DNA of 48,243 bases from Chiloscyllium plagiosum (taxonomy: Eukaryota). A program made the position numbers and the translations under genes. This document shows positions 2,452 through 47,609 of the stretch, in pieces. The DNA lies in the NCBI RefSeq assembly GCF_004010195.1, contig NC_057718.1, forward strand, positions 5,173,930 through 5,222,172, given 5' to 3'. The notes beneath the pieces are model-generated. The model saw only the letters and a list, made by a program, of their open reading frames with translations, did no database searches and was not told the DNA's origin. Position 1 is the stretch's first letter, and every line of letters begins with the position of its first letter.

Positions 2452-2580
2452 TGTTCTGAAGAAGAATCACTAGACTCAAAACCTTTAATTGTTTTCTCTC
2501 TACAGAAGATGCCAGACCTGCTGAGTCGCTTCAACAATTTCTGTTTTTGTTTCACATCTCCAGCATCCGCAGCTCTTTGG
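2452..2580 (+). mobile_element. Degenerate PLE terminal fragment
   Basis: CTGAAGAAGAATCACTAGACTCAAAAC followed by GATGCCAGACCTGCTGAG...CTCCAGCATCCGCAG. Similar to the 3' end at 5610-5706 and the copy at ~38255-38350. Confidence 0.55.
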
Positions 2581-4393
2581 TTGATATTATCTTGGTAAAC
2601 TATGTGTTTTATTCACCATTGTGGTCAATCACTGAACAAATTTACAAGAGGCTGCCAATGTACTTTTAACAATGAGCATAAAAAAGTCATTGTCCAATTG
2701 GGGATAAACCATTAACTGTATGAAAGCATACAAAAACTACAAAATTAATTAATTGCAAATATCAGGAGAGATTCAAACATTTGACCCCAACAATAACCTC
2801 AGAGATGCTCAAACTTCAGGAACAGACAGACAAACAAGGGGACAGACAAGGGACAGGAGTAGGCTTTTCAGTCCTTCGAGTCTGGTTTCATTTAATAAAA
2901 CCAGAGCTGATCTGAATTTAACCTCAACTCCACATTCCTGCATATCCTCAATAATCTTTCATCCCTGGGTCATCAAGAATCTACGTTTGCCTTAAAAATA
3001 TTTCAAGATTCTGCATCCACTAAGTTTTCAGGAAGGGAATTATAAAACCTCATAATTCTGAGAGAAATGCTTTTTTTTTGTTGCTCCTCTATTTTAACTG
3101 GGTAACCCCTTGTTTGTAAACTATGAACCCCTAATTCTAGACTTTTCCAAAAGAGGAACATCCTTTCAATATCCACCCAGTGAAGTCCCCTTAGAATTTA
3201 ATTTGTTTCAATTAGGTTGCATCAGACTCTTGCAAACTCCAAAGGATTCAGCTGCTCTCGCCGTACCATGAGATCCACAATCACTGCCACAGGTTGTCAC
3301 CCCTTTTCCAGTCCCGGCCCACTTACATCTGCGATTCCTCTGACACTTTACACCGGTGTCAGAATTTCCAGTTTGTGGGCTCCAGCTGCCTCCCTGTTAG
3401 CATGGACAGGCAATCCCTTTACACGTCTATCCCCCATCAGAATGGTCTCAGGGGTCTCTGCTTCTTCCTGGAACAAAGGCCTGAAATGTCCGCGCCCACC
3501 ACCAGCCACCTCCGCTTGGCTGAGTTTGTCCTCACCCTCAACTTCTCTTTTGATTCCTCTCACTTTCTTCCGGTCAGAGGAGTGGCCACGGATCTCCGCA
3601 TGGGCTCCAGATGTGCCTGTCTTTTTGAGGTGTACGTGGAATATTCTTGTTCCAGTCCTATTCCAGCCCTAACCCACATCCTGTTTACGATCAATGAGTT
3701 ATATCATCACTGCAGTTTCCCACTCTAGCCTGGAATTAGAAAAGTTTATCAATTTCACTTCCAATTTTCACACTGCTGTCATCTTCACCCGGCCCATCTC
3801 TGACTTCTCCCTTCCTCGACATCTATATTTCTATTTCTGGGATAGACTGGCCACTAATATCTACTACAAACCACAGACTTCCAAAGCTATCTGGAGTATA
3901 CATCCTCGCACCCTGCTTCCTGTGAAGACTCTATCCCTTTCTCCCAGTTTCTCTGTCTCCATTGCATCTGTTCTATTGATGCCAACTTCGACAAGGGGGC
4001 TCCGAAATCTCTGCCTTCTTCTTCAACCAAAGATTCCTCAGCACTGTAGTTGACAGGGCCTTCAGCCACATCCGACTGATCTCCTGCACTGCAGCCCTCA
4101 CCAACTCCCTTCCTCCCGCAGCAGCGTTAGGGTCCCCCTTGTCTTCACCTGCCATTCCCACCAGTATTTACATCCAGAGGATCATTAACCACCATTTCCG
4201 CCACCTCCCAACAGAATGCCACCATCAGATAAATAGAGCCCTTCCTTCCCTTGTCAGCCTTCTGCAAGGATCGCACCCCCCAGGACATCCTGGTCCACTC
4301 CTCTTTCATCACCAACATCACCAGCACTATGGCACCTTCCTCTGCAACTGCTGAAGGCGCAACGTCTGCCCATTTACTTTCTCCTTCCTCAGT

Positions 4394-4478
4394 GTGGAGT
4401 TAGTGCCTGAAACGTCGACTCTCCTGCTCTTCTGATGCTGCCTGACCTGCTGTGCTTTTCTAGTACCACACATTTAGA
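4394..4478 (+). mobile_element. Short PLE-terminus insertion (GAAACGTCGA...GATGCTGCCTGACCTGCTG family)
   Basis: Matches the arm of the 39807-40020 element. Flanked by CTCCTTCCTCAGT (4381-4393) and CTCCCTCCTCAGT (4479-4491). Confidence 0.65.
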
Positions 4479-4520
4479 CTCCCTCCTCAGTATCTAAGGG
4501 CCCAAACACACATTCCCAGT

Positions 4521-5055
4521 TGTTTTAAAAAATTCTCAAGGTCAGGTTCGTAGGAGAGTAGTCTGACACAGAACAAACGACCAAGAGGCGAGTCTGCTAG
4601 AATATGAGCATTTTATTCCCCGCAGCGTCGCCACAACCAGGTCTCATACTTACAACGGGTCTGGCTTATACTCACTCTACATGTTACCGGAACTGGGAGC
4701 CGTCAGTTCTCGTAGAGCGGTTGCCAACAACCCACGCTCGGCGGTTAAACGTAACCCCAGAGCAGACTCACCGAACTGGAGACTTTTCCAGCTGATATAC
4801 TCTTTTCCAGATATAAACATTCATGTGAACAGCAGAGCAAGGCTAAAAAACACATTCCATTCTGGTTACATACAGATAAGAAGATTCACACGGGGAGGTG
4901 TGTAATAAGATTCACACGGGACTAAGCAACACCTCCATTCCGGTTAGATTCACACATGTATTGGGACATAATTTTACACCACATTCCACTGCTTGGCCCA
5001 ATACATGTGTTACATTATGATTCACACATGTATTGGGACATAATTTTACACCACA
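4521..5055 (-). mobile_element. Solo LTR (535 bp)
   Basis: TG...CA ends with a 5-bp TSD CCAGT (4516-4520, 5056-5060). Interrupts the PLE. AATAAA on the minus strand at ~4611-4616. Internal ~37-bp duplication at 4947 and 5019. Confidence 0.7.
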
Positions 5056-5720
5056 CCAGTAAATCAGCACTTTCCCTGCACGACTCACAATATTGTCTCC
5101 TCTACATTGGGGTAACGAAGCATAGACTGGGTGACCACTTCACAGAACATCTAAGTTCTGTCTGCAAAAACGACACCGTGCTTCTAGTTGTCTGCCACTT
5201 CAACACACCACCATGTTAACCAGACAACGTTACTGTCTCAGGTTTGCTGAAGTGCTCCAGCGAAACTCAGTGCATGTGAAAGAACAACATCACATTTTCC
5301 ATTTGGGAACTCTACAGCCTTCTGGACTCAACAACAATTTTAGGGTTGGAGGCACCTTCTTCCATGTCCTTACCCAACACACCAGGCCTTGTTATCACAT
5401 GGTCTGCTATTACACACTACCCATTGTTAGCCACTAATTGTCACCATTAGCAACCATTCAATCACCTTTGCTGACCGTTGTCCTTTCCTTTGTCTGTGTG
5501 CAACTGTTCTTCTCTCTTTTTGGGTTCTATCCCCACCTTTTGTTTGCTCCTTACCCCCTCCCCAAACCCTATCTTCTGCATAAAAAACATTTTCCTAGCT
5601 ACCATCAGCTCTGAAGAAGCGTCACTGAACTTGAAACGTTAACACTGGTTTTACTCCACAGATTCTGTCAGACCTGCTGGTATTTTCTAGCACATTTTCT
5701 TTTTGTTCCAAAGGATTCAG

Positions 5721-6430
5721 GCCTAGTTTGTCTAGCCTTTCATAAGGCAATCCACTCATTCCAGATATTAGTCCAGTATACATGAACTGCTGACAATGCA
5801 TTAACTTCCTCCCTAAGTACAGTGACTATTATTGTACACTACTGCAGATATAGTCTCACCAATGCTCTGTATAACTGAAGCATAATCTCCTTACTCTTGC
5901 ATTCAATTCCCCTTGCAATAAACGATAACGTTCCATCAGCTTTCTGGATTATTTTCTGCACCTGCATAGAATCCTTCTGTGACTCAAGCTCCAGGACACC
6001 CAGATTTCTCTGCACATCAGAGCTCTGCAACATCTCACAATTTAGATCAAGTGCTTATTTTCTGCCAAAATTGACAATTTCATGCTTTCCCATTTGCAGA
6101 TCTTTGCCCACTAAATCAATGCATATCCCTTTGTAAGCTCATGTCCTCTTCACAACATACGTCGATTCTCCTGCTCCTTGGATGCTGTCTGACCTGCTGC
6201 GCTTTTCCAGCAACGCATTTTTCAGCTCTGATCTCCAGCATCTGCAGTCCTCACTTTCTCCTTCACAACACACTTTCCTACCTTTGTGTCAACAGCAAAT
6301 TTAGCAGCCAAGCCTTCATTCCCTTAATCTAAATCATTTATATAAAATGTAAAAAAAGAGCACTGGTCCCAATGCACACCACTTGTGATAACCTGCCAGC
6401 CTGAAAGAGACCAATTTATTCCTACTGTCA
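5721..6430 (-). mobile_element. CR1 LINE fragment (continues at ~2850-3251 on the other side of the PLE)
   Basis: ORF 5839-6033(-) DVQRNLGVL...LSFIARGIECKSKEIMLQLYRALVR. Confidence 0.75.
6161..6260 (+). mobile_element. Short PLE-terminus insertion
   Basis: Near-identical to the right arm of 39807-40020. TSD CTTCACAACA(T/C)AC at 6148-6160 and 6261-6273. Confidence 0.7.
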
Positions 6431-6769
6431 GCTTCCTGATTGTCTTAACCTATTCCCATTTCACCACCGTGCCTCTGCCACTCCTTTTATCTGTAGCTCT
6501 CCCGACACCCACCCCGAGTCCTGAAGAAGGTTATACCCAAAATGTTGACTTCTCTACCTCCTGATGCTGCGTGGCTTGCTGTGTTCTTCCAGCCTCCTGC
6601 CTGTCTACTTTAGATTCCAGTGTCTAGAGTTCTGTTTTGTTTCTAATCTTCTCCCTTTGCCAAGGTTACCTTTCTGTTACAGCAGGAGCTTTTAATTTCT
6701 GCAATAACGTTTGATATATTACATTTTGCAAATGTCTTCTCAAAGTTTCAATACAATATAACTGGCTCC

Positions 6770-7470: not shown

Positions 7471-7806
7471 TGAACAGGATTCCCCAAAGGCTGTGAACAA
7501 TCACTTCAATCGTACTTAACGATTATCACTCTTCTTCACTTTGCTCCTACCAGTTCCCTGATAATTGTAAGTTTCTGGAGCTCCTCCCTCCCCCGAATCC
7601 CTGATTTCCAGAAGATTCTGTTTTTAACCCCGTGTTGTCCCTTTCCTGGAAAACCGTAAATGTTTCAATCGGTGCGGAAACAGCGAATAAATATAATCAG
7701 TTGTTTCCTGAATTTTAAACAAGATTAAATACGGGAGAGGACACAACCTTCGACACCAGGGACTCTGTGAAAACGACCAAAAAACCTCGGAGGTCAAAGA
7801 GACACT

Positions 7807-8035
7807 CCTCCAGTATCCCAACATGCTTCACTATTCTAGCCAATCAGAGCCCAGAACCCACGAGGCGGTCCTCCAGAATCCCAGGGTGCTTTACTACTCC
7901 AGCCAATCAGAACCCGGAGCCCAGCAGATGGTCCTCCAGTATCCCAGGGTGCTTTACTACTCCAGCCAATCAGAACCCGGAGCCCAGCAGATGGTCCTCC
8001 AGAATCCCAGAGTCCTTCATGGTTCCAGCCAATCC
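7807..8035 (+). promoter_or_regulatory. 63-bp tandem promoter array (4 units), each with a ZNF143/Staf-like site and a CCAAT box
   Basis: CCAAT at 7840, 7903, 7966 and 8029 (exact 63-bp period). Each is preceded by ATCCCAnnRTSCTTYA. Lies immediately upstream of the CpG-rich LTV1 first exon. Confidence 0.7.
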
Positions 8036-11289: not shown

Positions 11290-12360
11290 GTATGTGATTT
11301 AAACCTGGGGAAAGGGGAGAGTTAGTGTGCTGTGGAGGGTCAGAGAGGAGGGGTTAGGAACTAGAAGGTGTCGGTGAACTTGTGGACAGGTGGGCACGAC
11401 ACTAATCCTCCCTCATGGTGGTGAAATTGGCTGGAAGAGGCGCAAACCTGGATCAAATTCCAAGCCCATTAAGTTGGCAAAATCTAACAATTTCTTCTCT
11501 GAATGCCTTGGTCAATCGAAATTAGTATCGGAGATCACCCAGGGCCTAAATAACATTCGCAGCTAAGAGATGATGTCCACCCCAGTCAGAGAAAGGTCCT
11601 GCTCTCGCTCGACAGAACTTAGTGAATAGTTACTAACTGCACAAGATATAAGATTGTTCCAGTTTTCAGTCCTAACATCAAATTTTACCTTGCACTTAAA
11701 TTGTTATCCTTTATAAATTCAAAAGCATATGTAACCCTTCCACAAGGTTAAAGCTGAGATGGTTTCATTGCTTTGTTGTAATGTAACTATTTGCACAGCT
11801 GCCTGTAGGTTTTGTTTCCCGTCACTCTATATACTCCCTGATTGTGTTTTCTTTGTTTCTTTCCCAGCCCCTCGATCTTGATTCAGACACAATGCTATCC
11901 CTCTCCGTGTCACTACACAATCTCGGCAGTAAGCACAGAACCTAAGAAATAAGTCTGGGTGGAAGTTCAGCCTTTCAAAGTTGCCCTGCCATTCTGTAAG
12001 ATCATAGCTGAGTTGCCCCAGGCCTCAGTTGTGCTGACACCTGTGAAATGGGTGAAAGGTCTCCGTCAATTTCTTTCAGAAACACTGCAACATCTGAACC
12101 TAACATCTCCGTGCTAGGACAGAAGATCTCTTGCTGCAGCAGCTAAAGCGAGAGCCCCATTTATCTGTACTTCCCCACCATCACCATTATCACCACCACA
12201 CTGATGTTAACATAGACACTAAAAGGCCCTATGATACTGCTTTTGAATGAAAGGGATTTCCCATGCAGCATTCCTCTTTCCAACCAACTGCACCTGAGCT
12301 TTACTGGTAACTTATCTGATTCACTCTCCGAGGGATCTTGCTGTACACAAATTGACTGCT

Positions 12361-12475
12361 TTTGCCCGAAACGTCGATTTTACTGCTCCTCGGATGCTGC
12401 CTGAACTGCTGTGCTGTTCCAGCATCACTAATCCAGAATCTGGTTTCCAGCATCTGCAGTCATTGTTTTGACCTC
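12361..12475 (+). mobile_element. Short PLE-terminus insertion (same family as 1923-2145)
   Basis: GCCCGAAACGTCGATTTTACTGCTCCTCGGATGCTGCCTGAAC...GCAGTCATTGTTTT is the reverse complement of the left part of 1923-2145. Confidence 0.7.
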
Positions 12476-12615: not shown

Positions 12616-12847
12616 GGATTCTGATGACGAGGAGTGGGAGGATACAGAGGATGAAGACTTTGACTCGGTCGGTGCTCTCTCTGATGATGATAATGATGGT
12701 TCAAAGATTGTTCGCTTTGAAGGCGGGATGAGGGAATTCTCCTTCATGGAGGAGGAAACCAGGAGTCGCTTCACTGCCTACTCCATGACATCATCTGTGA
12801 TGAGACGAAATGAGCAGCTCACCCTGTTGGACGATCGGTTTGAGAAG
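12616..12847 (+). CDS. LTV1: LTV1 exon 6
   Basis: ttcag|DSDDEEWED...EETRSRFTAYSMTSSVMRRNEQLTLLDDRFEK|gtcagt. Confidence 0.95.
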
Positions 12848-19716: not shown

Positions 19717-20062
19717 AAGTTAAAATCACAACACCAGGTTGTGTTCCAACAGGTTTATTTGGAAGCACTAGCTTTCAGAGCGCCGCTCTTTCATCATAGT
19801 GGGGTAAGATCATAAGACACAGAATTTATAGCTAAAGATCACTGTCTCGAAATGTTGATCACACCTAGATTTGCTCAATATTTTGTTTTAATTGCACGAC
19901 AATTATCTTTTGCTATAAATTTTGTATCTTACGATCCTGCCCCACTAGCTACCTGACAAAGGAGTGGCGCTCTGAAAGCTAGTACTTCCAAATAAACCTG
20001 TTGGAATATAACCTGGTGTTGTGTGATTTTTAACTTTGTCCATCCCCATCCAACACCACCTC
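19717..20062. mobile_element. Inverted-repeat PLE-derived element, second family, with degenerate hammerhead cores
   Basis: Arms at ~19717-19840 and ~19904-20036 are reverse complements. Right arm CTGACAA-AGGAGTGGCGCTCT-GAAA-GCTA. CACATTG(A/T)TT occurs on both flanks. Confidence 0.7.
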
Positions 20063-20634: not shown

Positions 20635-20893
20635 GTGGTTGCTGTTGCTGAGATGAGTGTTTTTTTTGCAGATTTATTGATTACCTGAATTTAAATTCTC
20701 CCTGCTGCTGCAATAGGATTTGGACTTTTGCCACTGTACCTTCAGAGCTGTGTCATCTCCCGAGTGGTTGCTGTTGCTGAGATGAGTGTTTTATTTTGCA
20801 GATTTATTGATTACCTGAATTTAAATTCTCCCTGCTGCTGCAATAGGATTTGAACTTTTGCCACTGTACCTTCAGAGCTGTGTCATCTCCCGA
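20635..20893. repeat. ~129-bp direct tandem duplication
   Basis: 20635-20763 and 20764-20893 differ only in a T-run and one substitution. Confidence 0.9.
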
Positions 20894-22385
20894 GGTTGAA
20901 GGAAGTCAGTTTTCTTCTCTTTGTTCAGTGCTGTAGCTCTGAAAAGCCTTGGATTACTGACTGGATGTCGTGTCCACTGCTTCTCCATTGTGGGGTTTCT
21001 TCTCTATTTCTGGGCCAGAAGTTTCCTGAGTTTGATTTGCAGAACTTTGATTCGTGGACATCTGAGAGCTGGGATGGTTTTCGCTCTCGGGATTCTCCTC
21101 TGAGTGAATACAATATCCAGAGTTCCATTAGCAGCACTATTGTCTCCATACCAGAAAGTTGAGGTTTACTTTACTCCTGAATAAAATATCTCAGCTCTCG
21201 ATTTCAGTGGAATACTGAGGGAGTACTGCATTGTTGATGGTACCTTCTTTCTCATTAAATTTTAAAAGTCTCGTCTGTCTTTGGGGATGTAAAAAATTTA
21301 ATTGCACCATTTGAAGACAGCTAGAGAAGTATCTTGTCGAATATTAACCCTCCATTATCTCATGATTGCTTGTGAATCCTCCTGGGCGCACCTCTATTTC
21401 TATGTTTATTACATCCGTGCTTCAGAAGTAAGTCATAGGCTGTGAAATGCTTCTTTTTTTTTGCATATCCTGGGTTTGTAAAAGGTGCTCAATAAATACA
21501 GGTCTTCATTTTGAAGGGTGACTATTAGTAAAACCCTTGTTGCACTGTCCCACAGGTGGTTGAGCGATTTAGGATAGACAACCATACTTTAACTGCGTAT
21601 TGTCTGTTGTGGCACTATCTTGGCATTTGGAAAAGCTCCACAATGCAACAAAATGTCACCCCACGCCACCACCTCTTATGTCACAATGGGGAGTATCACA
21701 CAATTTATGTGTAGTGAATATCGAATGGCCATTCTATCTTTTCAAGCATCTACCATTCAATAAGTATTTTATACGTCACCCTTTAAAGCCTAATCTATCT
21801 CTTGGTTCCTTTAGTATCAAAATCTGTTGACCTTGATCTTGAATAGATGCGATGATTGATCATCCACAGCTCAACAGACTAAAAAATACAAAAACTTCTT
21901 TCCTCTCTAAGGGAGCAAAAAAAAAGTAGGCCATTCGCATCATCTGGTCAATTCAATGTTTCAGCCATTCACTATGATCGTGATTGGTTATCCAACTCTA
22001 CCCTTTCCCCACTCCAATACCCTTTGATTGCTTTATCCCAACCCTCTCAAGTCCCTTGACTTTTTTTCTTCATGAAGCTACCATTCATTCTTCTGAGCTG
22101 GGGAAAACAGGTCTAATCTGCTCCACTTCTCATAGGACAATCCTCTTGTCCCAAGGAACTAATCCAACATGAATGAACAGCCTCCAAGCACATGTTCTTG
22201 TTACAATTCAAGGTGAACTTAGAATTGAGTTGGCTCCATCTTCCTTGTTTTCCTGCTAAAAGTAGTTTTCATTTTGTTTGTTTTACTTTTGTGCTGAATA
22301 AAAACTGCAAATCAGTAAGGTACAATTTCATCATAGGTCAGTGAAAGGGAACAATGGAGGAAAATGATGGGAAAGTGTTTTCTTT

Positions 22386-23528: not shown

Positions 23529-24429
23529 GACAGAATCCCAGTTGAATTGATGAAGGTTAATGACCACTACATGTTTCAGTTGAAACTGGTATCAACTCAG
23601 TAAAAATTGCTCTGTTTTATCCTGTCTGGACAAATCCTATGACCAATTATAGTCCTGTCAGTCTATGGTCAATCATCAGCAAAGTGTCATTGAGACTTCT
23701 ATAAAGTGACATCCGTTCTCTGTTGCTCAGTTTGGACTTTGGCAGGATTGCTCTGTTCTGGACCTCATTATGACTGTGTCCCATACATGGATAAAAGAAC
23801 TTAATTCAAGAGGTGAGAGTGCCTGCCCTTGATATCAAGGCAACATTTCACCATCAAATGTGGCATCAAGGAGCCCTTGCAAGCTAGAATCACTGCGATA
23901 AGAAAAGAAAATGCTGGAGAAGCTCAGCAGGTGTGGCAATATCTATGGAGAGAGAAACAGTGTGAACATGTCCAATATAATTTCTTCTTCAATGAGATTC
24001 GGGAAAGTACTCTTCATTGGTTCAAGTCTTATCTGACGCAAAGGTTGTGGTTGATAGATATTAGTCATCAACAGGACATCACTGCAGGAGTGTCTGAGGA
24101 TCGTGCCTTAGGCTCATCCATCTTCAGCTTCATCTTAAGGTCAGAAGTGCAGATATTAGGCAATAATGGCACAATGTTCAGCACCATTCACAATTCCTCA
24201 GATACTGAAGAAGTCCATGCTGCATTCAGGAAGACCAAGACAGAATTCAAGTTTAAGTTGAGAAGTGACAAGTAACATTAATGTTATACAAGTGCCAGGC
24301 AATTGTGTGCTTCAGCCAGAGAGAATCTAATCATCTTCCCTTGACATTCAATTCCATTAACATTAACTCCATCCGTGCAAAGGTAGCCCATTTGCAAACC
24401 CCCCAATCTGCCAATCTACCACTTTCTAT

Positions 24430-30587: not shown

Positions 30588-31200
30588 TATTATCGCTGAG
30601 CTGTTAATGCAGGCAATTTTCTGGGGATCTGGGTTTGAATCCTATCATAGCAGATGGTTGAATTTGAATCCAATTAAAAAAATCTGGAGTGAAGAGCCCA
30701 CTGATGGCCATGTCTCCATTGTTAATTGTCAGAAAAACCCATCTAGATCACTAATGTCCTTTAGGGAAGGAAACCACATCCTTGCTTGGTCTACTCAAAT
30801 GTGACTCCAGACCCACCGCAATGTAGTTGACTCTTAACTGCCCTCTGGATAATTAGGGATGGGCAATAAATGCTGGCCTGGCCAGAGATGCCCTCATCCC
30901 ATGATTGAATAAAGAAAAATTCACTATAGCCCTAAACTCTGAAATTTCCTCCCTTTCTCTCACCCCTCTCTCTACCTCACTAACGTCTTTCACTCCTTAA
31001 ACCCTATGTCTTTGATGTAGTATTTATGTAATTTATATTCTCCTTATGTGGCTTAGTATGAAATTTTGTTTTATAAAGGCTCTGCGAAGCATCTTGGGGA
31101 ATTTTATAAGTTAGAATTATTATAAAAATTAGAAACTATTGTTTTAGGGTCACTTGCTATGCTTAGGGCTATTTTATCTAAAATAAGATGTTCTGGTAAT

Positions 31201-31532
31201 GTTATGGTTAGGGTTAGGCTTAAGGTTAGAGGTAGGGTTAGGGCTTGGGTTAGGGTTAGGGTTTGGGTTGGCATTAAGGTGAAGTTTAGGGTTAGAGTTT
31301 GGATTAGGTTTGGGATTAAGGATTAGGTTTGGGATTAAAGTTTAGGTTAGAGTTAGGGTTTAGGTTAAGGCTAGGGTTTGGGTTAGGATTGGGGTTAGGG
31401 TTAAGGTTAAATTTAGGGTTAGGGCTAGGGTTAGCATTATGGTTCGGGTTAGGATTTTGTTTAGAATTAGGGTTTGGGTTAAGGTTAAGGTAAAGTTAAG
31501 GTTTAGGGTTATGGTTAGGGTTGGGGTTAAGG
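31201..31532 (+). repeat. Degenerate interstitial telomere-like array (TTAGGG and variants, ~55 units)
   Basis: TTAGGG mixed with TTAAGG, TTTGGG, TTAGGA and TTATGG, mostly in a 6-bp register. Confidence 0.9.
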
Positions 31533-31769
31533 TATGACCCAAATCAGCTGCTGGTTAATGTGCTGCCATCTTGGAGCCTAGTGCCCTGCTCAAATTTTGC
31601 CTACAGCGTTCTGTGGCACTATTGAACAGGGAGACAGTGATGTCATGTTTGCTATTCCCTTTTTCCATGTAGAATACTGCAGAGTGATTATCTCTGCATG
31701 CAGAAAGTCATAAAAACTCAAGCCTGCGTTTACTGGTCACTTTGAGTGCAGAATCGAGGACGAGGGGGG

Positions 31770-37932: not shown

Positions 37933-38801
37933 GTAACACCTTGCTTTTATTGAGTTGCTTTCATTGGCATTTCGGTCTGTACAATTCAACACGACAGGGT
38001 GATGTGTGGCTAGTCTCACAAAAATCCTCACCTTCACTGATCACATTCACTTCCCAAAACCTTTGCTCTTCACTCACTCAAGGGGCTAACCTCGATCTCT
38101 CCACTTGCATTTTCTGGGAATAATCTCTATCAAATAGCTTCTGGGAATCCATTAGATAATTTCCACCCTCAGTCTGCCTTTCATGGTGTGGAATTGGCCC
38201 ATAGTCTCCCGTAGTCTGTAAAAAAAAAAACAGGGAATTTCAGGCAACCTTCCAAAGAGAGATCACTGGACCCGAGGAATTAACTTTCAGTTTGTCTCTC
38301 CATAGATGCTGCCGGACCTGCTGAGTTTCTCCAGCAACTTCTGTTCCTGTAATTTGAGGTTTCAATTAGATCTCGCTGACCATTGTCTTGCCCCTCTGTC
38401 TCTCTTGGGTTTAACAGGGCGAATTAATCAGGCCGTAGCTCTAATATCTTCACTTCCACTTACAGATGGGCCAGGAAGAAGAATGGGCCATTCAGTGCCC
38501 TTGAGCCTGCTTGGTAAGATGGTGGACTGTGAGCTTAGTTTCATTTTGTCATGGAGCTGGAAGGCAATCACTGAGATAGCAGTGGGTTGATGGCTGTGCT
38601 GAGCTGGCATGAAAGAGGAGGTGATCCCCAGAGCAGATCAGCCATCAGGATGGGGTTGCAGGCTTGAGGGGCAGAATGGACTAGTCATGCTCCCTTTTAT
38701 GATGTTGCAAGGCAATGATAGCATTGCGGTCCTAAGTGTAACACTATGGCCGCGTCACGATGAGGCCTGTCCAGGGAATGATTGTGTGTGTCTAATTCCA
38801 G

Positions 38802-39118
38802 ATTACATCGAGTGTCCGTACTGTAACAGGCGTTTCAACGAAACAGCTGCCGAGCGACACATCAGCTTCTGCAAGACCAACGTCAACCGCAAAGTTGTGG
38901 CCAGGCACGACCCGACGCCGTCCTCCTTCCATCCTCGAGCTCCCCCTCCCCCAGCACAAGTGCAGCTGGCCTCAAAGCAGCCTACAAGCCCAATGCGGGC
39001 TCCAGCTGTACCAGCCACCTCATACCAGGCACCGCGAGGGCCTCCAGTTCAACCAGTACCTCCAATACGGACAGCACAGGCTGTACATTCACGCCCCACA
39101 ACACTTTCATCACCTTCG
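38802..39118 (+). CDS. ZC2HC1B: ZC2HC1B-like exon 5
   Basis: tccag|DYIECPYCNRRFNETAAERHISFCK (finger 2), then a Pro-rich stretch, ending TCG|gtaagg. Confidence 0.85.
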
Positions 39119-39227
39119 GTAAGGACATCCATCCAGACAGACACTTGGTCTAATACTGGCCACTCCTTGGCCTCTCCAATTTTCTGTTTTTTCATTTTTA
39201 GCTAATAATCTCTATCTCAACCCAGCC

Positions 39228-40200
39228 TAGTACGGTCCATTATGATCATTCCACCTGGTATGGTCACTGTGTCCAATACAGTCACTCTGTCTAAAACGGT
39301 CACTCCACACGATATGATCACTCTGTCCAGTATGGTCACTCTAACCAGTGTGGGTACTCTGTCCAATAAGGTTACTCTGTCCAATACAGTCACTCCACGC
39401 AGCGCAGTAATTCCATCCAAAATGGTCACTCCACCCAATATGGTCACTCTGTCCAATATGGTCGCTCGATTTGGTATGGTCCCTCTGTCCAAAATGGTCA
39501 TTCTGTTTGGTATTGTCACTCCACACGGTATGGTCATCTGTCCAATAACAGTCACTCCACTCAGTACGGTCACTCTGTTCAGTATGATCACTCTGTCTGA
39601 TACAGTTATTTCATCCAGTATTGTCACTCTGCCCAGTACAGTCACTCCCTCCATATGGTCACTCTACCTGGTATGGCCATTCTGCCCGAAATAGTCATCT
39701 ACCCAGTATGGTCACTCTCTCTGGTATGGTCACACTGTCTGGTTCTGTGATTCTGTCCAGTGCAGTCACTCTGTCCTGATTGTCTCCTGGGGGGGCTCAT
39801 TCATTGCTGAAAATGTGTTGCTGGAAAAGCGCAGCAGGTCAGGCAGCATCCAGGGAAGAGGAGAATCGACGTTTCGGGCATAAGCCCTTCTTCAGGAAGG
39901 GCTTATGCCCGAAACGTCGATTCTCCTGTTCCCTGGATGCTGCCTGACCTGCTGCGCTTTTCCAGCAACACATTTTCAGCTCTGATCTCCAGCATCTGCA
40001 GACCTCACTTTCTCCTCAAAGGGGTCATTCATTGTCATTCTGTTGGTATGGTTACTCCATCTGTACAGTCACTTTGTCCGACGTGGTCACTGTCCAGAAT
40101 GGTCACTCTGTCTGGTACAATCATTCTCTCCAGTACAGTCATTTTGCCCGCTACACTCTGCCCGCTATGGTCACTCTGTCCAGTACAGTCAGTTACAGTC
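39228..40200. repeat. Degenerate 18-bp minisatellite (TATGGTCACTCTGTCCAG), interrupted at ~39780-40035
   Basis: GTCACTC recurs with an 18-bp period, producing hexapeptide-repeat ORFs on both strands. Confidence 0.9.
39807..40020. mobile_element. Palindromic PLE-derived element with an intact minimal hammerhead core
   Basis: ~85-bp near-perfect arms around TTCAG (39891-39895). Minus strand 39868-39895 reads CTGAAGA-A-GGGC-TTAT-GCCC-GAAA-C-GTC. Flanks GGGG(C)TCATTCATTG at 39792-39806 and 40021-40034. Confidence 0.85.
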
Positions 40201-40487: not shown

Positions 40488-40714
40488 GTAAGGGCTATGT
40501 GTACTGCTAGAGTAATGTCAGGCAGCAACTCAGAACTCAGAAAAGTAGAAATATTGAACAGACTGAGGAGCTTTCCTTTCAAAAACAGAAAGCTGAGGGG
40601 GTGGAATGATTGAGCTCTGTCAAAGAGTTGATGATGTTTCAGTCATTAAGGCCAAGACTGAAATTGATAAATTTTGAGATATTTTCATTTTTTAAAACTG
40701 ATTTCTCATTGCAC

Positions 40715-43854: not shown

Positions 43855-43936
43855 ATTACAATGATCCATCCACCAGTCGGCCATCAGCCAACATGAGAGG
43901 ACCACCTGATGCAAGAGGACCACCTACTACACAGCA
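43855..43936 (+). CDS. ZC2HC1B: ZC2HC1B-like exon 7 (putative)
   Basis: tgtag|DYNDPSTSRPSANMRGPPDARGPPTTQ-CA|gtgagt; phase 1 to 2. Confidence 0.55.
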
Positions 43937-44138: not shown

Positions 44139-44476
44139 TGTTCAAAGTCTGTGCGAAGATTTGTAGCTCGGGTGCTCGTTGTTGTGGTTCTGTTCGCCGA
44201 GCTGTGTTGCAGACGTTTCGTCTCCTGTCTAGGTGACATCCTCAGCGCTTGGGAGCCTCCTGTGAAGCGCTTCTGTGATCTTTCCTCCGGCATTTGTAGT
44301 GGTTTGAATCTGCCGCTTCCGGTTGTCAGTTCCAGCTGTCGGTTGCAGTGGTCGGTATATTGGGTCCAGATCGATGTGCTTATTGATTGAATCTGTGGAT
44401 GAGTGCCATGCCTCTAGGAATTCCCTGGCTGTTCTCTGTTGACACAAATTCCCAGCTCGGCGAACAGAACCACAAC
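44139..44476 (-). mobile_element. Penelope (Poseidon-like) 3' fragment with hammerhead and inverted terminal copy
   Basis: ORF 44229-44447(-) AREFLEAWHS..SINKHIDLDPIY resembles a PLE GIY-YIG C-terminus. 44179-44204 is inverted at 44453-44478. TSD AAGGTTAC(C/T)TCAGA at 44125-44138 and 44477-44490. Confidence 0.8.
44209..44248 (-). ncRNA. Minimal type I hammerhead ribozyme motif
   Basis: GCG-CTGAGGA-T-GTCACC-TAGACA-GGAGAC-GAAA-C-GTC-TGC. The catalytic core is complete, stem II has one mismatch, stem I is 3 bp, and stem III is the palindromic ACGT. Confidence 0.7.
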
Positions 44477-45576: not shown

Positions 45577-45692
45577 AAAAATCACACAACACCAGGTTAT
45601 AGTCCAACAGGTTTATTTGGAAGCTTTCAGAGCGCTGCTCTTTCATCAGGTGGTTGTGAAGCAGGAAACATCTAACACTGGCTCCTCCACAT
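45577..45692 (-). mobile_element. Short PLE-terminus insertion (same family as 19717-20062) with hammerhead core
   Basis: Minus strand 45621-45649 reads CTGATGA-A-AGAGC-AGC-GCTCT-GAAA-GCTT. TTCACTGAA(C/T)TA on both flanks. Confidence 0.65.
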
Positions 45693-46391
45693 ATTCACTG
45701 AATTAGTCATTCAGTGGGCTAGCCCAGTGTTCTGGCAAAATGGGTTGAAATCCCAAATGGTGCAATGTAAATTCAACTCGTAAACTCTGGAGCTGAAAGC
45801 TACGCTCTGTGATAGTGACCATAACATTGTTGTTAAAAACCCATCTGGTTCACCAGTGCCCTTTAGGGAGGAGAATGAGTTGACTGGGCTTGGCCCAAAT
45901 GACAGTCCAGACCAACAGCAATGTGGCTGACTCTTCACAGCCAATGGCTGAACAAGGCACATTCTTGTCACTCATTGGTTTTGTAAGGTTTTTCTGAACT
46001 GCATGTGGGACTCTGTGGTGCCTCTTGTGTAACAATCATCTGAAGCTACACTCTTCCCCAGAATAGGGAACCTCCTTAAGACCATCCATTGGCTATGCGT
46101 TTTCAAAAGGAACACTCCTCTGTGACTCTTCATAAAACAGCACATTCCGGGATCTGTATCATTTCATATCCTCACCAGCGGATTCTTTCACTTTATACCG
46201 GCCTGCAATCCTCCTTTGGAAGCAGGGACAGGAAGGCAGATTCCTACCTGAATTGTGGAACTCGCCACCAAAGGGGATGGGTGGGATAAATAGCATTGAT
46301 GGACCCAAGAGGAAGCTCCATAAACCAAGGAGGCAGAGACACGCGTTAGTCTGAGCAGCAACCAGCAGCAACAGAGCGAAGGAGAATGAAG

Positions 46392-47158
46392 CTGGGGGTG
46401 AACAGCAGGGTAAATACCTGGGGGGTGGGGTCAGTAAGTGACCCTGGGTGTGAACAGCAGGGTAAATACCTGAGGAGTGGGGTCAGTCAGAGTGACCCTG
46501 GGGGTGAACAGCAGGGTAAATACCTGAGGAGCGGGGTCAGTCAGAGTGACCCTGGGGGTGAACAGCAGGGTAAATACCTGAGGAGTGGGGTCAGTCAGAG
46601 TGACCCTGGGGGTGAACAGCAGGATAAATACCTGAGGAGTGGAGTCAGTCAGAGTGGCCCTGGGTGTGAACAGTAGGGTAAATACCTGAGGGGTGGGGTC
46701 AGTGAGAGTGACCCTTGGGCGTGAACAGCAGGGTAAATACCTGGGGGGAGGGGGTCAGTCAGAATGACCCTGGGGGTGAACAGCAGGATAATGCCTGAGG
46801 AGTGGAGTCAGTCAGAGTGACCCTTGGGGGTGAACAGCAGGCTAAATACCTGAGGAGTGGGGTCAGTTAGAGTGACCCTTGGGCGTGAACAGCAGGGTAA
46901 ATACCTGAGGGGGGGGGTCAGTCAGAGTGACCCTGCGGGTGGACAGCAGGATAAATACCTGAGGAGTGGGGTCAGTCGGAGTGACCCTGCGGGTGGACAG
47001 CAGGATAAATGCCTGAGGAGTGGGGTCAGTCAGAGTGACCCTTGGGGGTGAACAGCAGGGTAAATACCTGAGGGGGGGGGTCAGTCAGAGTGACCCTGGG
47101 GGTGAACAGCAGGGTAAATACCTGAGGGGGGGGTCAGTCAGAGTGACCCTGGGGGTGA
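46392..47158. repeat. ~54-bp minisatellite, 14 copies
   Basis: Unit GGGGGTGAACAGCAGGGTAAATACCTGAGGAGTGGGGTCAGTCAGAGTGACCCT. Confidence 0.95.
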
Positions 47159-47609
47159 CCAGTGGCTGCTCATTATTCCTCATGATCACCTTCTTGCCCT
47201 TTCCCAGTATCGCTAGACCCTTTACTGATCAAACACATTTCTAACTCAACCTTAAATATCCACAAGGATTGTGCCCTCACAGCTCGCTGTGGCAAGGAAC
47301 TCCAAAGACTCACAACCCTCTGAGAGAAGAAATTCTTCCTCATCTCAGTCGTAAATTGGCGTCCCCTTAATCTGAGGCTAATACCTCTGCTCCCTTGAGG
47401 GGAAACATCCACTCAGCATTAACCCTGGCAAGCTCCTTAAAAATTCTGCATGTTTCAATGAGATCACCTCTTGTTCTTCTCAGATGCAATGAGTAAAGTC
47501 CCATCTCAGCCAATTTGGATCAGCTTGGCCTCATTAGAATATCAAACGGTGATAAGACAAAGTCCTGGTCAGAGGCCACTCTGTCTCTTTCTCTAATTTA
47601 TTTTTGCAG

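Follow-up and report, generated by a model that had tools for sequence, protein, structure and literature searches.

A 214-bp hairpin with a hammerhead motif at its apex in a shark genome is probably a minimal insertion of an EN+ Penelope-like element

A near-perfect hairpin centred on a hammerhead ribozyme motif lies towards the right end of the 48,243-nt stretch of Chiloscyllium plagiosum DNA analysed here (the window), and raises the question of whether such a structure is an element in its own right or a product of integration. The initial annotation had offered both alternatives, a SINE- or retrozyme-like class and a signature of Penelope-like element (PLE) integration, and it is the second that finds support here. 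We read the hairpin (insertion A) as a dead-on-arrival insertion of an EN+ PLE, cut to the terminal region, with the mirror shape being built at each insertion (probability about 0.85).

Insertion A spans 214 bp (39807-40020) and consists of two head-to-head arms of 84 bp, at 39807-39890 and 39896-39979, with one mismatch (83/84 identical), as originally described. Its fold of -178.6 kcal/mol (z -25.5) was equalled by 0 of 200 shuffles, and at the apex 3 bases of microhomology enclose a 5-nt loop. The insertion and its target site duplication (TSD) comprise the following parts.

39793-39806: left TSD, 14 bp, 13/14 identical to 40021-40034
39807-39898, minus strand: inverted tail-less arm that includes the full minimal hammerhead core (39868-39895) and extends 3 nt into upstream sequence
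39896-39898: junction, 3 bases common to both arms (microhomology), compared with the family-1 upstream consensus
39896-39979, plus strand: second arm, beginning 5 nt inside the CUGA box; cleavage predicted after 39918
39980-40020, plus strand: one-sided tail, 41 bp, the final 3-4 bases differing from the family consensus
40021-40034: right TSD, where contigs without the element start aligning exactly

The upstream family-1 sequence was read from the loose ends of reads and contigs before 39896. A pattern for the hammerhead core matched three times in the window against 0.01 expected, one match being the minus strand of A at 39868-39895, where a complete minimal core had been reported. The plus strand does hold an incomplete copy, but this lacks CUGAA (5 nt) and not just CU. 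An extra hammerhead-like pattern match at 40563-40594, where profiles find no arm homology, is probably due to chance. Rfam returned neither a hammerhead match nor a tRNA or other head at A. Identity as a microRNA precursor was considered and rejected, mir-680 (38 of 104 bits) and mir-3127 (32 of 82 bits) being sub-threshold in Rfam.

The insertion sits within a degenerate 18-bp minisatellite, between a zinc-finger exon upstream (approximately 38800-39120) and a probable last exon at 43857; judging from these flanking exons, it is probably intronic. Exons in the window were assigned by Pfam as LTV1-like (PF04180, E 5e-12) and C2HC zinc-finger (PF13913), and the closest named relatives of the window's retroelement reverse transcriptase (RT) are bamboo shark proteins. 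Other repeats are present in the window: a 63-bp repeat of 3.4 copies with CCAAT-like motifs (7806-8017) and a 54-bp minisatellite of 14 copies (46392-47162), both upstream of an LTV1-like exon; a 130-bp tandem duplication, exact-looking at 98% (20635-20894); and an interstitial degenerate (TTAGGG)-like array of about 55 units (31155-31556).

The match between the two copies of the A TSD is of a quality reached in 58 of 2000 random pairs drawn from the surrounding minisatellite, and the TSD therefore rests mainly on empty-site contigs. One contig from a relative (organism B, X12 record 8) and one from a second organism-A sample (X5 record 23) align from 40021 only, and run on for 1,095 and 302 letters, respectively, that are unlike the element; we take these letters to be the left flank. 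A further contig (X3 record 16) enters element A with 0 differences. The locus is read as having an empty site in the relative and in the other sample of the same species, with A being a young insertion that is probably polymorphic within the species. Each DNA run has between 63,535 and 73,114 contigs that align to the A element. Whilst this is not a copy number, it does indicate that the element is very abundant in both organisms, as the very high genome-wide number proposed earlier would have it. Both arms of A carry variants at 39929 and 39933, the latter being a minority state in all three DNA runs. The 39933 variant accounts for approximately 27-35% of depth in organism A and 2% in organism B, which suggests that it marks a subfamily expanded after the two organisms split.

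Profile searches of the window recovered 18 arms in 13 insertions belonging to four families, covering about 5% of its length at a density of about 270 PLE-end insertions per Mb. The annotation had counted about ten copies, without those at 5611, 23900-23992 and 44139-44476. In addition to A, the insertions are as follows.

1923-2145: fold-back B, family 1; tailed arm on the minus strand, tail-less arm on the plus strand, tail on the left
1907-1922 and 2146-2161: TSD of B, 16 bp, perfect
2452-2578, plus strand: arm D, family 2, single tailed; begins 3 nt before the CUGA box; TSD not found
3294-5710, plus strand: decayed PLE with copy H, family 2; RT and thumb 3294-4396, GIY-YIG C-terminus 5097-5332
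within 3294-5710, plus strand: end region of copy H, with 3' UTR, TATA-like box at 5579, hammerhead core at 5611 and tail-less end
4394-4478, plus strand: arm G, family 1, single tail-less; 13-bp TSD (1 mismatch); sits inside the PLE ORF remnant
6161-6260, plus strand: arm I, family 1, single tailed; 13-bp TSD (1 mismatch); begins 3 nt before the cleavage site
6460-6650, plus strand: older copy J, full core at 6521; left end uncertain
12358-12475, plus strand: arm K, family 1, single tailed; no clear TSD
19717-20062: old fold-back C, family 3; TATA box in both arms, each of which extends 55 nt or more upstream of the core; 10-bp TSD (1 mismatch)
23900-23992, minus strand: decayed arm N, family 2, a profile match
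38250-38350, plus strand: decayed arm L, family 2; possible similarity upstream
44139-44476: insertion O, family 4; long tailed minus-strand arm with core 44213-44245, 26-nt tail-less arm; 14-bp TSD
45578-45693: insertion M, family 3; inverted tail-less arm that extends to -17; 12-bp TSD (1 mismatch)

Seven of the 13 insertions possess TSDs, of 10-16 bp. The 12-16 bp range first given holds for B and for the copies at 4394, 6161 and 45578, but the TSD at 19717 is of 10 bp and none that is convincing was found for 2452, ~6520, 12361, ~38255 or 23900. Two opposed arms occur in 5/13 insertions (A, B, C, M and O), and in every case one arm is tailed and the other tail-less. The resemblance of 1923-2145 to A was well observed: B has the same build, with a tail of 33 bp and 4 extra bases at the apex. 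Its arms differ at 8/91 sites, all of which lie within the inner 44 (P 0.002 if uniform) and three of which are CpG sites. The sequence at 19717-20062 is also a fold-back, as proposed, but its arms extend past the ribozyme and its apex is not there. The supposed single arm at 45577 (M) proved to be an inverted tail-less arm joined to a tail of about 25 nt in the opposite orientation, with no overlap between the two pieces. The copy near 6520 (J), described as starting at or near the hammerhead, does have a full core but probably carries upstream element sequence, 3/300 shuffles aligning as well. About 140 bp separate arm K from a downstream LTV1-like exon, whose splice acceptor is at 12616.

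The affiliation of these ends with PLEs is provided by the decayed copy at 3294-5332, whose RT and GIY-YIG remnants match RT+GIY-YIG proteins and run into the 3' UTR and arm H (5611). The continuity of ORF remnant and arm ties family 2 to a PLE. The proposed PLE origin is supported, as is the presence of several families, four in all. Arms of families 1 and 2 are homologous (E 2e-8 to 1e-3), and it is only via this homology that family 1, including A, would be linked to PLEs. Furthermore, the hammerhead core, stem II and palindromic stem III are kept in all four families, in line with the minimal, dimer-type hammerheads recognised earlier. Pfam found no domain in the four broken PLE frames, and the identification is by matches to RT+GIY-YIG proteins. 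The family-1 arm peptide had no match in 1.84 billion proteins, and the arms of families 1-3 were matched by 0/121 PLE-like proteins. A conserved ATG in the arms was entertained as a PLE start codon and discarded, with 0 protein matches, 0 motif matches in the 121 proteins and a downstream frame that is not kept between subfamilies. No full-length pLTR-ORF-pLTR partial tandem copy occurs within the window. The hammerhead pattern had 0 matches in viral contigs and 0 in prokaryote genomes; six matches in metagenomes, confined to 23-34 bases with unrelated flanks, were treated as chance. Additional PLE sequence is found on the minus strand of 1-258, an open N-terminal ORF stretch (E 1.5e-13 to P0005 residues 20-103) that is cut on its 5' side by a LINE-like fragment and continues beyond the window start. 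The ORF remnant carrying H is split between thumb and endonuclease by about 550 bp of unrelated sequence (4510-5060), within which lies a short internal duplication near 4950-5050.

Breakpoints had been said to cluster at the ribozyme, and the insertions described as ribozyme-bounded. Clustering was indeed observed, though it falls on the ribozyme's 5' edge rather than on the cut: the inner ends of 6/13 insertions (A, B, D, G, K and N) lie within -4 to +10 of the CUGA box. The scan P, corrected for the choice of window, was 0.003-0.04 when lengths were modelled as exponential with means of 60-150 nt; among TSD-bounded insertions only, 3/7 fall in the cluster (P 0.15-0.44, not significant). Arm L was left out owing to its possible upstream similarity, and the inner ends of D, G, L and N, together with the overlap values given below, were called by eye from alignments. 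Modest clustering at this edge is thus a plausible feature of the inner ends. The left ends of A and B lie at -3 and -4, at a pyrimidine-purine step. In RNA, 723 reads extend upstream past 39896 against about 1,136 covering 39903, and the consensus upstream of 39896 fades after about 13 letters (agreement 0.5), which fits, and does not prove, an edge near -4. A spliced intron was rejected as the cause of this edge, an AG being present there in H and J and not in the A/B family, and the stubs being without a common upstream exon.

That hammerhead cleavage itself defines the arm ends is very improbable. The conservation of core, stem II and palindromic stem III in four families would suit such a role, as would copy I with its start 3 nt from the cut. 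Against this, 0/18 arms begin at the cleavage product, so 'ribozyme-bounded' does not hold in the strict sense, and most keep 17-31 nt upstream of it. Neither do the loose ends listed (24 of 899) include any at 39918-39919, nor do 3,052 RNA reads show a pile of read ends; in Anolis, too, no reads were found to end at the site (PMC11167929, accessible part). Forcing the ribozyme core to fold inside the hairpin costs 26 kcal/mol in A and 30 kcal/mol in B, and the pairing probability of stem II in the A hairpin is about 1e-14. The mirror hairpin being far more stable, the hammerhead cannot fold within the palindrome. The ribozyme would be a passenger at the apex whose cleavage does not set the arm ends.

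The outer ends indicate how the arms may have been primed. In three DNA runs they form two classes, with loose ends behind 40015-40016 and 39972-39976, a match to the one-sided tail in the available text of PMC3846280 and PMC8557442 and to the two start sites in that of PMC11167929. Additionally, outer ends overlap the target by 1-5 bases: by at least 1 base at 8/9 scorable ends (P 1e-4) and by at least 2 bases at 6/9 (P 5e-6), two further ends being dropped from the count as they had no valid comparator. Two routes to the second arm were weighed. In fold-back self-priming, a proposal made in the accessible part of PMC3846280, one nucleic acid strand hairpins at a short self-complementary stretch of the hammerhead and is copied back. 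Taken alone, A fits this as well as it fits priming at both target ends: its arms are 83/84 identical with common subfamily variants, as fold-back copying predicts, its apex consists of the short microhomology and loop noted above, and the richness of the hammerhead in short palindromes would explain where the junction lies. Fold-back cannot, however, make M. The pieces of M cover non-overlapping template, so neither was copied from the other and two separate primings are needed. The clustered arm differences of B, which include non-CpG changes, and the 4 extra bases at its apex also speak against it, and a solo tail-less arm with its own TSD (G) shows the tail-less end to be a start site. On the geometry of M, the inner arm differences of B and the outer-end overlaps, dual priming with head-to-head joining is favoured as the somewhat likelier account, self-priming being rather unlikely as the main route.

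It is improbable that A represents a non-autonomous SINE- or retrozyme-like element, in which PLE enzymes would copy, as whole units, the ribozyme-processed transcripts of one or a few palindromic masters. Such an origin could be suspected from the similar size and build of A and B and from two centre forms that recur across the three DNA runs, one with 5 letters missing at 39895 (29, 20 and 17 contigs) and one with 3 letters inserted at the centre (24, 5 and 15 contigs); the summed depth of both is high, is not convertible to copy number and may in part be an alignment artefact. Non-autonomous PLE derivatives are, moreover, described in the accessible parts of PMC8557442 and 10.64898/2026.07.22.740005. 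Set against these observations, the junctions of A and B differ, tandem units are absent and the ribozyme fold is costly in competition with the hairpin, and the master hypothesis of the annotation is not supported. Of the 3,052 RNA reads on the element, 96 in 100 continue into sequence unlike it, the pattern expected of read-through transcripts. The annotation had also asked whether junctions are shared or unique. Here they are largely individual, the 14 skips among the joints listed (15 of 290) having 14 different second-arm starts, from 39930 to 39992; the first side of each joint is fixed by the use of A as reference, and the sides measure 19-32 letters, where misplacement is possible. Some joints nevertheless recur in all three runs, and there may be a minority of master-derived or hotspot junctions.

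The RNA data derive from one polyA single-cell run, of which about 2 in 100 were sampled, a weak library for testing ends; no read in that run covered the flank of the A locus beyond the TSD. In run X21, 182 reads over 39880-40016 share a common loose end behind 40014 (agreement 0.86) that contains a polyadenylation-signal-like hexamer, and another copy of A's family seems to sit in an expressed 3' UTR elsewhere. A>G was seen at 17 places in RNA and at 7-9 in DNA, and T>C at 27 and 14-16, respectively; C>T and G>A hardly differed between the two. A>G was skewed to one mate direction at 3/4 sites (P 0.02 versus 18 other rows) in a test based on 27 rows of adequate depth, from 33 typed, among the rows listed (40 of 144). 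Allele shares in RNA versus DNA were discarded as evidence of editing, as non-editing changes were also enriched in RNA. A few highly expressed copies could mimic the strand skew, and editing is therefore a hint only. Near-perfect 84-bp hairpins in introns are likely editing substrates, and editing of Penelope RNA in a lizard is reported in the accessible part of PMC5625713.

We propose that insertions such as A arise as follows. Staggered cutting of the target leaves the duplication of 10-16 bp. RT would then start at two internal sites about 35-40 nt apart, as published for another PLE; both sites would lie downstream of the hammerhead, one yielding the tailed and the other the tail-less end, and priming seems to be aided where the RNA pairs with the target end over 1-5 bases. 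Both DNA ends would prime one cDNA each, a step that we consider reasonably probable, and the two cDNAs would be joined head to head, in A via 3 shared bases. Many cDNAs may possibly stop just upstream of the CUGA box, where the RNA would begin: initiation on a 5'-proximal copy of the start sites would then lead, some 90 or 130 nt further on, to run-off at the transcript end.

The last step can be extended into a tentative model, one that we regard as doubtful. PLE RT would start on the 5'-proximal start-site copy and run off the capped mRNA end about 4 nt before the CUGA box, and a dimeric enzyme priming both target ends would weld two run-off cDNAs into a hammerhead-centred palindrome. Run-off at the element's own mRNA 5' end would be possible because PLE RT initiates internally. 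The reading relies in part on the spacing rule between TATA box and start: in copy H a TATA-like box precedes the equivalent of the A at -4 by 28 nt, for which the background chance is about 0.06 per 9 positions. In D. virilis Penelope an intron begins 46 bp after the start site (PMC2377424) and, in the accessible part of PMC4209133, ends at helix I; the ribozyme would thus also be near the mRNA 5' end in that element. Conversely, M-left reaches -17, 8 nt past the start site predicted by the TATA box of its family (-39), J has no TATA-like box, and the A base at -4 is also explained by stem I pairing. Within the accessible parts of the literature searched, the run-off idea was not found. If true, shark genomes would contain a vast fossil record from which the PLE start site could be mapped and two-template priming tested, the 4-5 bp stem I of these hammerheads would be explained, and the palindromes would supply self-contained dsRNA substrates for A-to-I editing.

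Comparison with known systems places A with EN+ PLE insertions, whose inverted terminal copy and one-sided tail are published (PMC3846280, PMC8557442 and PMC8969392, in their accessible parts). Like the insertions in the available text of PMC3846280 and PMC8557442, those described here have a head-to-head inverted terminal copy, a TSD, heavy 5' truncation, a tail of 30-40 bp at one end and a palindromic or microhomologous junction. The window displays the following traits: a minimal type I hammerhead with palindromic stem III in four families, an inverted 5'-truncated copy adjoining the 5' end in 5/13 insertions, a one-sided tail of 41 bp in A and 33 bp in B, and a TSD with an empty site. Unlike the published insertions, as far as those texts are accessible, often only the terminal 85-135 nt remain per arm, with no ORF between; and whereas A. 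vaga PLE copies are few and mostly long in the accessible parts of PMC3846280 and PMC8557442, the window has about 270 insertions per Mb.

The ribozymes share with the metazoan PLE minimal hammerheads in the accessible part of PMC4209133 the extra base after CUGANGA, the G-C closing pair, the palindromic stem III and the short stem I. There, hammerheads form opposite-strand pairs 100-700 bp apart and are mostly solo motifs from truncated PLEs, and no shark is named; the ribozyme and such pairs are also described in the available text of PMC6765202. In contrast to the PMC4209133 pairs, the two cores here abut or overlap at the apex, abolishing the fold. For Poseidon of Anolis carolinensis in vitro, the accessible part of PMC11167929 describes two internal start sites that lie downstream of the hammerhead and bound the tail; both target strands are extended, a dimer is predicted and cleavage is dispensable. 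Homology between start site and cut DNA is reported to be absent there, whereas 8/9 outer ends overlap the target here, and short fold-back products such as ours are not discussed in that part of the paper.

Animal non-LTR retrozymes (PMC7229834; 10.64898/2026.07.22.740005, both in their accessible parts) are, like the stubs, small, non-coding, hammerhead-bearing and derived from PLE termini. They are, however, head-to-tail tandem units from which ribozymes release monomers and circles, whereas the stubs are head-to-head or solo and dispersed, with variable ends and a buried ribozyme. In the window, 0/17 tandem-repeat rows cover a hammerhead arm, and unit ends are not set by self-cleavage (0/18 arms; fold blocked). 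SINE features are likewise missing, with no tRNA-, 7SL- or 5S-derived Rfam head and inner ends that vary, and the stubs differ from MITEs in having a tail on one side only and TSDs of 10-16 bp that are not of a fixed short length. L1 twin priming yields two oppositely oriented, non-overlapping pieces inside one TSD. Insertion M has this geometry; in A, B, C and O, by comparison, the same template stretch is represented twice, for which two RNAs, a second pass or fold-back are necessary.

How PLEs make inverted ends is stated as open in the accessible part of PMC8557442, and no paper dealing with PLE stubs in sharks came up in our literature search, with most subscription papers outside reach. 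Such stubs, young, in part polymorphic and present in their tens of thousands, constitute test material from which answers can be obtained by counting: whether one or two templates are used, whether start sites are paired and whether the RNA 5' end sets stub length. A works like, and belongs with, EN+ PLE insertions, and is a known class at its smallest. What is new here, all from small numbers, is the stops at the 5' edge (6/13), the dual priming of M and the overlap of outer ends with the target (8/9).
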